In this document: in pieces, positions 1 to 41,372 of the stretch
How positions within the stretch are numbered: position 1 is the stretch's first letter
How the letters are laid out: the number at the start of each line of letters is the position of its first letter
Source of the DNA: a virus
Taxonomy: Duplodnaviria; Heunggongvirae; Uroviricota; Caudoviricetes
Reading direction: 5' to 3' (one strand)
DNA length: 41,372 nucleotides
IMG/VR virus record: IMGVR_UViG_2778261576_000004
Coordinates: 1 to 41,372 of that record
The notes under the pieces: model-generated
What the model was told of the DNA's origin: nothing
Seen by the model: the letters and a program-made list of their open reading frames with translations, nothing else
The model's database searches: none
Made by a program: the position numbers and the translations under genes

Positions 1-1251
1 GTGCTTACCGATACAAAATTAAAAAACCTCAAGCCGCAGGACAAACTGTACAAGGTCTCCGATCGTGACGGGCTGTATGTAGCTGTGCTTACGTCAGGCA
101 CGGTCTCATTTCGTTATGACTACCGTATCAACGGTCGCCGCGAAACACTGGTAATCGGGCAGTATGGGCGTGACGGTATCAGCCTGGCAGAAGCGCGGGA
201 AGAACTGATTGCTGCAAAGAAGCTGCTTAAAGCAGGCCAATCACCGGCTGCGGCTAAACGTGACGGTATCAAAAAGATTCGTGGTGCCGAAACGTTTGCG
301 GTACATACCGACAGTTATATGAAACACGTCATCCTGGCTGAAAGTACCCGCGCAATGAAGCAGGCAGTGATCGACCGTGACATACTTCCGGTTCTTGGCA
401 ACAAAATGATGGCTGAAATTACCACATCGATGGTTCGTGATTTGTGTGACCGGATTGTCGAACGCGGTGGCCGGGCAACAGCAGTGCAGGCCAGGGAGAT
501 CATCAGCAGCGTATACCGTCACGCCAATGACCGTGGTCATGGTTTGTTTAATCCTGCGGCTGACATTAAGCCTTCGTCTATCGCCATATTTAAACCACGA
601 GAGCGAACACTGACACCAGAAGAAATTGGCCTGTTCTTCCGCACGTTGGATGCCATTGGTGCTATGGGCACTATGAAAATGGCTTTAAAACTGGTGCTTA
701 TCACTATGGTTCGTAAGGGCGAATTCACCAATGCAACGTGGGATGAAATAGATTTTAAAAAATGGACATGGACAATTCCTTCAGACCGCATGAAGGGAAG
801 CCGGGCGCATGTTATTTACCTGCCTAAACAGGCTCAGGATATATTGGTCGGGTTGCAGATGTGCGCTGGTGGAAGTGAATATCTGGTTCCTGGTCGTTAC
901 AATTTCCGGAAGCCATTATCTAATGCCGCGCTGAACTCTCTGATCGACAGAACGGTGAAAATAATAAATGAAGATGGTGAGCATATTCAGGATTTCACCG
1001 TACACGATATGCGCCGTACAGCCAGTACGTTGTTGCATGAGGCTGGTTATCCTTCAGACTGGATTGAAAAGGCTCTGGCACATGAGCAGAAAGGTGTGCG
1101 CGCCGTATATAACAAAGCGGAATACGCCAGACAGCGCGCCTACATGTTGCAGCAGTGGGCCGATATGATTGATTCCTGGATTGACGGGGAGCATACGGAT
1201 CTGATTCCGTTCTCCCCGTCGAAGTTTGAGAAGTGGATGGCGGGGGAATAA
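1..1251 (+). CDS. int: Tyrosine site-specific recombinase (phage integrase, P4-like)
   Basis: 416-aa ORF from the window edge; C-terminal catalytic region with HDMRR (H-x-x-R), LAHE and a downstream Tyr (AVY). GTG at position 1, so the true start may be at or just upstream of the window. Confidence 0.9.
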   Translation: MLTDTKLKNLKPQDKLYKVSDRDGLYVAVLTSGTVSFRYDYRINGRRETLVIGQYGRDGISLAEAREELIAAKKLLKAGQSPAAAKRDGIKKIRGAETFAVHTDSYMKHVILAESTRAMKQAVIDRDILPVLGNKMMAEITTSMVRDLCDRIVERGGRATAVQAREIISSVYRHANDRGHGLFNPAADIKPSSIAIFKPRERTLTPEEIGLFFRTLDAIGAMGTMKMALKLVLITMVRKGEFTNATWDEIDFKKWTWTIPSDRMKGSRAHVIYLPKQAQDILVGLQMCAGGSEYLVPGRYNFRKPLSNAALNSLIDRTVKIINEDGEHIQDFTVHDMRRTASTLLHEAGYPSDWIEKALAHEQKGVRAVYNKAEYARQRAYMLQQWADMIDSWIDGEHTDLIPFSPSKFEKWMAGE

Positions 1252-6495: not shown

Positions 6496-7311
6496 ATGAG
6501 CAGACATGCAACAGATTGGGCCTGGGAGACAGATCCAGGTAGCTCATCATTAAAGCTCATACTGCTCTCGATGGCTGACAGAGCCGATGAATATAACCTC
6601 TGCTACCCCAGCATAGAACGCCTCGTTAAAGACACTTGCCTGAATAAAAAAACCGTGCAGGCCGGGCTTATATCGCTCATGAAAATGGGGCTTATTTCAG
6701 ATACCGGAGAGAGAAAGGGAGCGACAAAAAGAGTGCGGGTTTTCTCTCTTAATATAACCAAAAACGGGAACATTAAAGGCAACCGGGAGGGGGGCAATGA
6801 ACCCGAAAACGGTAATGTTACCGAAAACGGGAATATACCCAAAAACGGGATGTTGAATGATCCCAAAAACGGGATGTTGAATGATCCCAAAAACGGGATC
6901 CAGAACCAGTCATATAACCAGTCATTTAACCAAGAGAGGGAGAGCAGGACAAAAACCCGAGGTTCTGTGCCTCATGACCCCGGCGCAAACAACGCCGTGA
7001 TGAATAACTTTGTTCCTCCTGGTGGGCCAGGGCAATTAGGCAAATTTGTCATGCATGAACAATGGCAGCCATCAGATGACTTTCTTCGGAAAAGCTCATT
7101 GCAGGGGATCTACCTGGACAGTCTGCCAACGGCACAGGAACTTGCAGAGTTCAGAATTTACTGGATGGCTGAGGGTAAGGCATACCATCAGGCACAGTGG
7201 GAGCAGAAGCTGGCAAGGCGGCTGCAGATTAGCAGACAGAAGCAATCAACATTACCTGATAACAACGTTCCGCACTGGAACAGCCCTGAAGCATGGGAGG
7301 ATTTCTTGTGA
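6496..7311 (+). CDS. Replication initiator (lambda O-like HTH N-terminus, repeat-rich middle)
   Basis: N-terminal LKLILLSMADRADEYNLCYPSIERL-type winged-helix region common to phage replication initiators; internal DNA iterons; sits directly before the P-like gene. Confidence 0.75.
   Translation: MSRHATDWAWETDPGSSSLKLILLSMADRADEYNLCYPSIERLVKDTCLNKKTVQAGLISLMKMGLISDTGERKGATKRVRVFSLNITKNGNIKGNREGGNEPENGNVTENGNIPKNGMLNDPKNGMLNDPKNGIQNQSYNQSFNQERESRTKTRGSVPHDPGANNAVMNNFVPPGGPGQLGKFVMHEQWQPSDDFLRKSSLQGIYLDSLPTAQELAEFRIYWMAEGKAYHQAQWEQKLARRLQISRQKQSTLPDNNVPHWNSPEAWEDFL
6758..6901 (+). repeat. Iteron-like direct repeats inside the O-like gene (putative ori)
   Basis: About six spaced copies of CC(A/G)AAAACGG(G/T)A, including two identical 24-bp units CCCAAAAACGGGATGTTGAATGAT at 6838-6861 and 6862-6885. 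Confidence 0.55.
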
Positions 7312-39603: not shown

Positions 39604-40082
39604 TCTGGTCATTCGTAAAAGCATACCGTAAACAGTTGATTATCATGGCGGTGCTTGCTGTTCTGGTCATATCAGGAGTTGTTGCCTGGAATGTGCACGG
39701 CAGTCGTCAGTACGACGCTGGGTATGCACAGGCGAAAGAAGACCGCAAAACCGAAGATGAGAGAGTTCGTCAGCACTACGAACAGGAGAAATCGATCAAT
39801 GAACGTGAAGCGCAGCAGAGGATCGACCAGGCGCGCAATGATGCTCTTGATGCTGCCGCTCGCGCTGGCCGGTTGCAGCAACAGCTCGTTGCCATCCGTG
39901 AGCAGCTCAGGCAGTATAACGCCATTGTCGGCGCTGGGACGTCAGCCGCAGACACCGGAGTTTTGCTTGCCGACGTGCTCAGTAAATCTCTCGAGAGAAA
40001 CAGACAACTGGCAGAGTATGCTGACCGGGCAGCCGAAGCCGGAAGAGTCTGTGAAAAACAGTACGACACCCTGACCAGATAG
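39600..40082 (+). CDS. Rz: Rz-like inner-membrane spanin (i-spanin)
   Basis: N-terminal transmembrane segment [18 protein letters not shown] followed by a Gln/Arg/Ala-rich coiled coil; start overlaps the endolysin stop; contains an embedded +1-frame lipoprotein ORF. Confidence 0.75.
39838..40074 (+). CDS. Rz1: Rz1-like outer-membrane lipoprotein spanin (o-spanin), embedded in Rz
   Basis: +1-frame ORF wholly inside Rz: [13 protein letters not shown] with an L-A-G-C lipobox, then a Pro/Ser-rich periplasmic segment. Confidence 0.6.
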   Translation: MMLLMLPLALAGCSNSSLPSVSSSGSITPLSALGRQPQTPEFCLPTCSVNLSRETDNWQSMLTGQPKPEESVKNSTTP

Positions 40083-40237
40083 CATGGCATTTTTCATGGT
40101 ACTGATTTCCGGTGACGGTATATAAAACGGTACGAGGAAAATTGAGCTTTGGAAAAACGTTATCACTCAATTGGTTATGGTGCCAGTAAATAATTGAGTG
40201 GGAATGATTTTGATCCCTGCACTATGAATGAACAAAA

Positions 40238-40264
40238 CCCTCTGTTACTACAGAGGGTTTTTTA
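40238..40264 (+). terminator. Rho-independent terminator after the lysis cassette
   Basis: CCCTCTGT-TACT-ACAGAGGG hairpin flanked by an A-run upstream and T7 downstream (usable on both strands). Confidence 0.6.
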
Positions 40265-40301
40265 TCTTCAAGAATTATAGGCTTGAAGTTACTTACATCG
40301 A

Positions 40302-40841
40302 TTAATTAAACCAGCTGTCCGATTTGTTCTCTTCTGCTTTGCCCACGCTTTTCATCAGATCGCGACCGCCTTCAGTCATATTTCTGTTTGCGTCAGCTTC
40401 AGATTGCACCACATCGGTTTGCGCAGCTTTGTGCTTCAGTTCCTGATCGATAAATTCGTTTTCGCGCTTAACGCGGGCTTCTTCTTTCGCCAGTGCCAGT
40501 TTTTGTTTCTGAATCTCTAAGCTGCGTAGCTCATCTTCATAACTTTGATCGCGTTTTTTGTCCGCAGTGGCTTCGGCGTCCAGTTTATCCTGACGAGCTT
40601 TCTTATTTGCCGCTGCCGTTGCCGCTCTTTTATTAGCCGCGGCCTGGGCGTTTGCGCGACGTTGCTTCTCTTGCTGGATTTCCCTGTTGCGCTCCGCGAC
40701 CCATTCGTCATGCTGCCTTTGCTCTTCATTTTTACCTTGCTGTTCCGCTTCTGCGACAGCCGAGAGTTGATCCTGCAATGATGAGGCGATAGCCGGATAG
40801 CTAAAGGAGGCTAAGATGGCGCAAAGAAAAACTTTCTTCAT
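40302..40841 (-). CDS. Secreted periplasmic coiled-coil protein
   Basis: Signal-peptide-like N-terminus MKKVFLCAILASFSYPAIA; Lys/Glu/Ala/Gln-rich helical body; family not confidently recognised. Confidence 0.45.
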   Translation of the reverse strand: MKKVFLCAILASFSYPAIASSLQDQLSAVAEAEQQGKNEEQRQHDEWVAERNREIQQEKQRRANAQAAANKRAATAAANKKARQDKLDAEATADKKRDQSYEDELRSLEIQKQKLALAKEEARVKRENEFIDQELKHKAAQTDVVQSEADANRNMTEGGRDLMKSVGKAEENKSDSWFN

Positions 40842-40856
40842 GACTCCTCCTGATTA

Positions 40857-41372
40857 TTAGCTCTTTTCAGGACATTTGGTATTTGGCTGAATACGCGTTT
40901 CGTTATACGTCGTGGTAATAACAACGGCTAAACCTGTCGTAAACTGGCACTCTTTACCCACCTGGGTGGAGGTATACACTTTGGTGCCTTCCTTATACGT
41001 TAGAGAAACACCTTCCACTAAGGTTTTATCATTCACCATAGAACCCGCTGCCGCGCCAACAGCTCCGCCGCCAACTGCACCTGCCGTCGTTCCGGAATTG
41101 CTGCCAGACCCCACGTTGTGGCCGATTACACCGCCAGCGACTGCACCAATAAGCGCGCCGAAGGCTTGTGCGTTTCGTTTATTTTGGGAGTTGTCTACGG
41201 CAACTTTTGCGGGAAGAATGGAAATAATATTAACGGTTTTAGTTTCTTGTTTGGTATTCAGTTGATCGGTTTGATAAACATCGGCGGCATGATCATCAGC
41301 ATTTGACTGGCATCCTGCCAGAGTGAATGACGCTAACATTGCCACAGGCAGAAGACATTTTTTAAATTTCAT
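40857..41372 (-). CDS. Glycine-zipper lipoprotein (SlyB/17-kDa-antigen-like)
   Basis: Lipobox LAGC after a signal peptide; Gly/Ala-rich glycine-zipper segment (GALIGAVAGGVIGHNVGSG...AVGGGAVGAAAG); start codon is the last triplet of the window. Confidence 0.55.
   Translation of the reverse strand: MKFKKCLLPVAMLASFTLAGCQSNADDHAADVYQTDQLNTKQETKTVNIISILPAKVAVDNSQNKRNAQAFGALIGAVAGGVIGHNVGSGSNSGTTAGAVGGGAVGAAAGSMVNDKTLVEGVSLTYKEGTKVYTSTQVGKECQFTTGLAVVITTTYNETRIQPNTKCPEKS

Follow-up and report, generated by a model that had tools for sequence, protein, structure and literature searches.

The right end of the window, which is the whole stretch of 41,372 nucleotides analyzed here, is almost certainly chromosomal DNA of Escherichia coli. 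Positions 40302–41372 carry the yfgH-yfgI operon, directly outside the attR site of a phiV10/epsilon15-like (Uetakevirus) prophage. The two genes are yfgI and yfgH, they originate from the host, and the prophage, which is of the Uetakevirus (phiV10/epsilon15) type, is delimited exactly by a 17-bp attR core. The first-pass annotation had recognized two minus-strand genes for envelope proteins here, and had described them as either lysogenic-conversion cargo or host flank. The two open reading frames are present with these coordinates and encode proteins of 179 and 171 residues. The pair is conserved beside guaA in strains without the prophage and is absent from free phages, and it is therefore host flank and not cargo. 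The features of this region are listed in Table 1.

Table 1. Features of the right end of the prophage and of the adjacent host DNA, with the integrase gene at the opposite end of the window.
Feature	Position	Strand	Basis or remark
Tyrosine integrase (P4-type)	1..1251	+	Translation; starts at GTG, window base 1; attL-proximal end
Rz-like i-spanin, last phage gene	39600..40082	+	Pfam DUF2514, E-value 1.8e-41
Embedded Rz1 lipoprotein ORF	~39799-40074	+1 frame	Homology to the phiV10 Rz/Rz1 annotation
Phage-derived P arm of attR	40083..40192	.	Not present in empty-site strains
GTGACGGTAT, probable arm-type integrase-binding site (predicted)	40112..40121	+	Motif count, epsilon15 annotation
Imperfect inverted repeat of attP/attR	40153..40211	.	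Right arm holds the recombination core
attR core ATTGAGTGGGAATGATT, 17 bp	40193..40209	+	Prophage right boundary
Host bidirectional intrinsic terminator (from sequence)	40234..40261	.	Common to convergent guaA and yfgI
yfgI, secreted DUF5384 protein, 179 aa	40302..40841	-	Host core gene
yfgH-yfgI spacer, 15 nt	40842..40856	-	AGGAGG Shine-Dalgarno 4 nt before yfgI ATG
yfgH, outer-membrane glycine-zipper (SlyB-like) lipoprotein, 171 aa	40857..41372	-	Host core gene

The attachment site at the 3′ end of guaA

The core ATTGAGTGGGAATGATT is identical in five sequences: the attR of the window, the attL of two lysogens, the attB of a K-12-type strain, and the attP of phiV10. When the two attL sequences, attB, attP, and the window junction are aligned, the homology changes partner exactly at both edges of the core. 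Bases 40193–40207 correspond to the last four codons of guaA and its stop codon (I-E-W-E-*), and two further bases complete the 17 bp. The right boundary had been expected within 40.08–40.30 kb, where a repeat of the attL core was to be sought, and the core does lie in this interval.

The boundary was approached from both sides. Among the free phage genomes listed at an identity of at least 92%, which include phiV10, phiv142-3, EC.W1-9, HEMP4, ZX5, and the O157 typing phages 9 and 10, the match ends at position 40209. In the epsilon15/Salmonella group it ends at 40208–40210, within two bases of that position. From the host side, a comparison proposed in the first-pass annotation, the match with empty-site strains begins at 40193 and guaA lies immediately to the left. 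In some lineages it begins at 40183 because of a chance match of GCCAG. From 40193 to 41372, the window shows 100% identity with the strain 806883-9-2019 at its empty site, and approximately 98% identity with K-12-type empty sites. The same 17-mer was published as the attP/attB core for vB_EcoP_ZX5, phiV10, and epsilon15; integration at this core was shown for the sister phage ZX5, for which it was confirmed by sequencing the PCR products of attB, attL, and attR (PMC9782041).

The attL sequence was taken from related lysogens and lies outside the window. In these lysogens the core of attL ends 190 bp upstream of the GTG start codon of int. This codon is base 1 of the window, and attL is therefore located just off the window, on the left side, as had been supposed. 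This position explains why the window includes only a single exact copy of ATTGAGTGGGAATGATT, with no second copy elsewhere in it, and why no direct repeats were found in 40000–40320.

Downstream of the Rz gene, phiV10 and epsilon15 both have attP first and int next. The attR of Uetakevirus prophages at guaA (phiV10, epsilon15, and ZX5) shares with the window the 17-bp core, the Rz-attP-int order, and guaA and yfgI as flanks on opposite sides, and no difference is seen at the junction. The body of the prophage, on the other hand, is a mosaic when compared with any of its sequenced relatives, the tailspike and the 33–38 kb region being examples. The right-hand 8.4 kb has no full-length match in any complete E. 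coli genome, and no match covers the whole right end at 100%. The junction is a textbook case of a published attachment site and yfgH and yfgI are named core genes, so that both are already known.

The left arm and core of the phiV10 attP are identical to the window at 117 of 127 positions. Upstream on the plus strand is a lysis block composed of two holin-family genes, a GH19 endolysin gene, and the DUF2514 Rz gene with the embedded Rz1, in agreement with the Rz/Rz1 pair described earlier at this place. The integrase at the other end of the window is annotated as such in near-identical lysogens. The 10-mer GTGACGGTAT occurs four times in the window (at 170, 260, 513 on the minus strand, and 40112), while 0.07 occurrences are expected; the three copies other than that at 40112 sit within the int gene. 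The epsilon15 record annotates the same 10-mer four times as an integrase binding site, and the copies in the window are probably arm-type sites, to judge from the motif.

The inverted repeat noticed earlier near 40168 and 40192 is real, and its right arm overlaps the core. It includes the perfect 9-mers CACTCAATT at 40164–40172 and AATTGAGTG at 40192–40200, and extends to 25-nt arms (40153–40177 and 40187–40211) with 76% complementarity, by which a segment of the P arm is paired with the core itself. Folded as RNA, it reaches −15.8 kcal/mol (z −3.0). The repeat is kept in phiV10 and TL-2011b, while its left arm is retained only at about 6 of 9 positions in epsilon15. In the epsilon15 record, the left-arm stretch is annotated as IHF sites, which are predictions by the depositors. 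The strict IHF consensus WATCARNNNNTTR has no exact match in 40001–40300, and IHF sites at this junction are regarded here as putative. A further reading, in which the inverted repeat would supply two core-type integrase sites that flank the crossover, was unsupported and was rejected, because the midpoint of the arms, near 40182, falls outside the 17-bp identity of attP and attB, and attB shares only an out-of-register GCCAG there.

The bidirectional terminator that had been placed behind the lysis genes is a real structure, but it does not belong to the phage. The stem-loop at 40234–40261 has a folding energy of −20.1 kcal/mol on one strand and −20.5 kcal/mol on the other (z about −5.7), and none of 200 shuffled sequences equalled it. 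Its sequence is identical at the empty site of the K-12-type and 806883-9-2019 strains. Judged from the sequence, it is the guaA/yfgI terminator on the host side of the junction, and not a part of the phage or its lysis cassette. In the lysogen it stands behind the phage lysis operon and before the convergent yfgI. At attL, guaA is supplied with a terminator from the phage, which consists of CCCTCTGTTTTTGCAGAGGG and a subsequent T run. Because integration duplicates the core, the coding sequence of guaA is preserved at attL; the accession of the GuaA protein is the same in lysogens and non-lysogens.

These elements can be arranged into a simple scheme of integration. The P4-type tyrosine integrase would catalyse recombination between the 17-bp core of attP and its exact counterpart at the 3′ end of guaA. 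At attL, the coding end of guaA would remain unchanged and would gain the terminator supplied by the phage. At attR, the core, which repeats the final four codons of guaA and its stop codon, would be followed by the native guaA/yfgI terminator. Beyond this terminator, yfgI and yfgH would be transcribed towards the prophage.

The yfgH-yfgI pair as a host operon

The region 40080–41372 of the window was matched in 5422 of the 5426 complete E. coli genomes, where the genes are annotated as yfgI and yfgH. In about 90% of those genomes (~4850), the pair is located directly beside guaA and the site is empty of prophage. The occupied attR junction was found in 552 of the 5426 genomes, and the integrase in 554. 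The order yfgG-yfgH-yfgI-guaA is kept in E. coli, Shigella, E. ruysiae, and E. albertii, and in E. whittamii approximately 0.7 kb of extra DNA is present between yfgI and guaA. The E. coli K-12 operon, which we take to be b2505-b2506, has the same neighbours, yfgG and guaA, and the same terminator as the window; the guaA-yfgI spacers of the two differ by a few SNPs and an indel of 2 nt.

The two genes constitute an operon, as indicated by the short spacer between them, by their adjacency, and by a published study in which yfgHI was regarded as an operon and the orthologues of both genes in Salmonella Typhi were SdiA-regulated (PMC11619404). In all 24 full-length loci recovered from other genomes (Escherichia, Citrobacter, Pantoea, Xenorhabdus, Pseudomonas duriflava, Haemophilus haemolyticus, and metagenome-assembled genomes), yfgH is immediately upstream of yfgI. 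Among the recovered loci, guaA neighbours the pair only in Escherichia and close relatives. The invariable pairing suggests that the two proteins are functionally paired in the periplasm, and the adjacency of the genes suggests that YfgI acts there with YfgH.

YfgI matches the Pfam family DUF5384 (PF17358) with an E-value of 4e-62 and a score of 209 bits against a cut-off of 25, and is identical to the K-12-type YfgI at 177 of 179 residues (99%). It has a Sec-type signal peptide, MKKVFLCAILASFSYPAIA/SS, where the slash marks the cleavage site; the cleavage motif A-I-A/S is a putative one, read by eye. The first-pass annotation had called this protein a secreted coiled coil. The signal peptide bears out the first part of the description. 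For the second part, the hydrophobicity of heptad positions a and d was, in a crude test, no better than that of shuffled sequences (p = 0.68); the analysis shows a long charged helix, and a coiled coil is at most putative. AlphaFold2, run with an alignment of 20 sequences, predicted one continuous helix from residue 17 to 178 with a mean pLDDT of 85, and the mature protein is 40% charged and contains no proline. The model portrays YfgI as a secreted, very long, charged helix of approximately 160 residues. At 0.15 nm per residue, such a helix would be about 24 nm long by our estimate and could span much of the periplasm. The sole reported phenotype of YfgI is the sensitivity of a yfgI mutant to nalidixic acid (PMC3536626).

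YfgH is a glycine-zipper lipoprotein, as had been proposed. It has the lipobox L-A-G/C21 and matches the glycine-zipper 2TM family PF05433 with 33.2 bits, above the cut-off of 24.2, and its residues 69–114 include 14 glycines and 10 alanines. The yfgH start in RefSeq is a GTG one codon (3 nt) past the end of the window, and is cut off by it. The yfgH DNA is 100% identical to that of the strain PD23, whose YfgH (WP_001295476.1) has the same accession as that of the K-12-type strain.

The lipobox and the Gly/Ala-rich zipper (PF05433) of YfgH are shared with SlyB and other glycine-zipper 2TM lipoproteins. In a recent preprint (bioRxiv 10.64898/2025.12.22.696046), YfgH was reported to stabilize the outer membrane under envelope stress; deletion of yfgH led to SDS/EDTA sensitivity, higher permeability of the outer membrane, and loss of outer-membrane proteins. 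SlyB-like rings of YfgH were predicted with AlphaFold, and clsA mutations suppressed the defect. The genetics of the two lipoproteins are distinct according to the same preprint, with Mla suppressors for slyB and clsA suppressors for yfgH. In the text of this study yfgH occurs 198 times and yfgI does not occur.

Mobile copies and alternative interpretations

Phage P7 encodes the same two genes in the same order. Its upf50.5 protein is 69% identical to YfgH and its upf50.0 protein 48% identical to YfgI, both over the full length and with annotated signal peptides. The P7 pair belongs to the phage genome itself, where the tail-tube genes and immI flank it, whereas the pair in the window is chromosomal and approximately 98–100% identical to the core copy. 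The P7-type copy is also seen on about 186 plasmids of the size of P1/P7. In addition, a 7.5-kb ColRNAI plasmid encodes a glycine-zipper protein 76% identical to YfgH and a DUF5384 ORF 61% identical to YfgI. A phosphoethanolamine transferase encoded beside the plasmid-borne yfgHI-like pair was considered as a candidate MCR enzyme, but it resembles CptA and scores far short of every MCR cut-off, and the assignment was rejected.

It is tentatively proposed, as a possibility rather than an expectation, that YfgH and YfgI make up a portable two-protein module for hardening the outer membrane, in which the YfgI helix would partner the YfgH ring, and that the diverged copies on P7-type phage-plasmids and on small ColE1-type plasmids would be real conversion cargo.

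A different proposal concerns the history of the chromosomal genes. The Escherichia yfgHI may be the former cargo of a mobile element, acquired horizontally in ancient times and fixed beside the guaA integration hotspot. The two genes are always together, but Pantoea, Xenorhabdus, Pseudomonas duriflava, and Haemophilus each place them beside different neighbours; S. Typhi is reported to possess the pair and S. Typhimurium to lack it (PMC11619404); and homologous pairs are carried by P7-type phage-plasmids and by the ColRNAI plasmid. Such an origin is nevertheless unlikely, since the synteny is kept across Escherichia species, the pair is found in 99.9% of E. coli genomes, and neither att-like repeats nor mobility genes flank it in the window. 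This proposal is compatible with the explanation of the window as host flank.

The genes could also be host genes whose expression is altered by the prophage, if late transcription proceeding from Rz caused antisense interference on yfgI, a kind of regulatory conversion. The lysis operon of the phage and yfgHI are transcribed towards each other across a gap of only about 220 bp, and the stretch from Rz to the core revealed no strong phage terminator. However, the bidirectional terminator of the host, with −20 kcal/mol on each strand, is intact between them, and late genes are silent in a lysogen, which also counts against interference. Lysogeny of ZX5 at the same site did not significantly change growth, stress response, antibiotic sensitivity, or virulence (PMC9782041). 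An effect of this kind is considered very improbable.

The least tenable interpretation is that the genes are lysogenic-conversion cargo, a bor-like moron within a prophage whose attR would lie to the right of the window. The bor gene of phage lambda encodes a lipoprotein and is cargo placed beyond the lysis genes, and the position and orientation of the pair after Rz/Rz1 resemble it. The likeness to bor/lom-type morons of lambda, with a lipoprotein gene on the opposite strand beyond Rz/Rz1 and then a terminator, is one of position only; unlike these morons, the pair in the window is outside the att core, is present in non-lysogens, and is absent from virion genomes. A moron is enclosed by the att sites and moves with the phage genome, while this pair is to the right of the attR core, and moron status was rejected. 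Three further observations had seemed to speak for cargo. The record of the "phage" TL-2011b in GenBank/RefSeq lists both genes as phage genes (gp54 and gp55), but this record overruns its own attR core (at 41251) by approximately 3.5 kb into yfgI, yfgH, yfgG, and pdeF. Both genes match PHROG families at full length. The diverged pair in P7 is real cargo, but its proteins are only 48% and 69% identical to those of the window. The pair stands beside guaA in the ~4850 complete E. coli genomes that have no prophage at the site, no free Uetakevirus genome carries yfgI or yfgH, and phage homology ends at 40209, so that there is next to no chance that the genes are cargo. The proposal of bor-type cargo falls with the conservation of both genes in strains lacking the prophage, and the pair is taken as host flank below.

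Consequences for annotation

Reference resources propagate the assignment of these genes to phages. The RefSeq entry of TL-2011b (NC_019445/JQ011317) wrongly includes about 3.5 kb of host DNA, at 41268–44784 of the record, with yfgI and yfgH in it. The PHROG families 1094 and 1277 contain the yfgI/yfgH genes, and family 1277, which consists of YfgH-like lipoproteins, is labelled "DNA methyltransferase". Due to the host DNA in TL-2011b and these PHROG entries, homology-based prophage finders and annotators will tend to assign yfgI and yfgH to phages and to set the limits of prophages at guaA too far out.

The locus itself reveals nothing biologically new. The right boundary of this prophage is now settled to the base, at 40209, and the two genes beyond it are struck from the list of candidate phage cargo.

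Host genes in a phage record and their labels

The record 'Escherichia phage TL-2011b' (NC_019445.1/JQ011317.1), deposited in GenBank/RefSeq as a complete phage genome, was found to include about 3.5 kb of host DNA beyond its own attR core (see the table). The host genes are entered there as phage features, namely gp54-gp57 and one misc_feature, and yfgH carries the name 'DNA methyltransferase'.

The PHROGs search matched YfgH of the window (40857-41372) over its full length to phrog_1277, with the e-value 5e-111, and YfgI (40302-40841) to phrog_1094, a group of unknown function. The 'DNA methyltransferase' label of phrog_1277 is evidently wrong for a lipoprotein with a glycine zipper, and RefSeq also uses it in the annotations of P7 upf50.5, RCS47, and SJ46. 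Residues 61-157 of YfgH showed similarity to Pfam TraT below the threshold (28.1 bits, with the cut-off at 31; e-value 2e-6). TraT is the F-plasmid lipoprotein for surface exclusion and complement resistance.

YfgI varies in length from 165 to 179 aa in E. coli (database proteins P0002-P0056), and the entries P0039 and P0066 look frameshifted. In E. coli G3/10, the match covers no more than 72 bp, made up of the guaA end and the spacer, and yfgHI seem to be missing from this genome.

YfgHI-like genes on phage P7 and plasmids

In phage P7, upf50.5 is a lipoprotein gene resembling yfgH (69% aa identity), and the yfgI-like upf50.0 (48% aa identity) follows it directly. Here, a copy of the yfgH-yfgI two-gene module is truly carried by a phage, and the P7-type pair was also found in about 186 P1/P7-sized plasmids in PLSDB.

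A row of three genes was recognized in the plasmid pNT1W25-7k: a divergent CptA-like phosphoethanolamine transferase, a YfgH-like protein (76% aa identity), and a YfgI-like ORF (61% identity) that is absent from the PLSDB gene table. Together, they look like a possible envelope-modifying cargo cluster. Membership of the transferase in the MCR family was considered and rejected, as it is CptA-like and scores far below every MCR cut-off.

Coordinates of the features on the window and on related records
Feature	Record	Position	Strand	Content or context
GTGACGGTAT copy	window	170-179		
GTGACGGTAT copy	window	260-269		
GTGACGGTAT copy	window	513-522	minus	
GTGACGGTAT copy	window	40112-40121		
yfgHI-like pair	P7, AF503408.1	1959-3023	minus	between tail-tube genes and immI region
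Three-gene row	pNT1W25-7k, NZ_CP075476.1	3693-6788	minus	7.5-kb mobilizable ColRNAI plasmid
attR core	TL-2011b	41251-41267		
Host stretch	TL-2011b	41268-44784		yfgI, yfgH, yfgG, small ORF, start of pdeF

The guaA-yfgI gap and the attachment region

The gap between guaA and yfgI is occupied by different inserts in other genomes. In Citrobacter sp. ANG330, an epsilon15-type integrase survives as a 50-aa remnant next to guaA (6949-7098 of its yfgHI locus, L019), and the gap includes about 2.4 kb of other DNA. IS200C was found in the gap of one strain, E. coli CNREC_004-43, and E. whittamii has about 0.7 kb of extra DNA there. At the yfgHI locus of Escherichia sp. E1V33, guaA was not found within 4 kb.

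The 10-mer GTGACGGTAT is present in four copies in the window, against 0.07 expected, and three of them fall within int, in its 5' part. The epsilon15 annotation gives this motif as an integrase-binding site, with two of the copies inside int.

In lysogens, guaA is closed by a phage-supplied terminator, AACCCTCTGTTTTTGCAGAGGGTTTTT, located in the P' arm of attL (2311-2400 in the attL-containing loci of two related lysogens, L003 and L004). It is close in sequence to the host guaA terminator AACCCTCTGTTACTACAGAGGGTTTTTT (window 40234-40261). Because the phage and host terminators are so alike, the attP region of the phage may be a descendant of a captured guaA 3' region.
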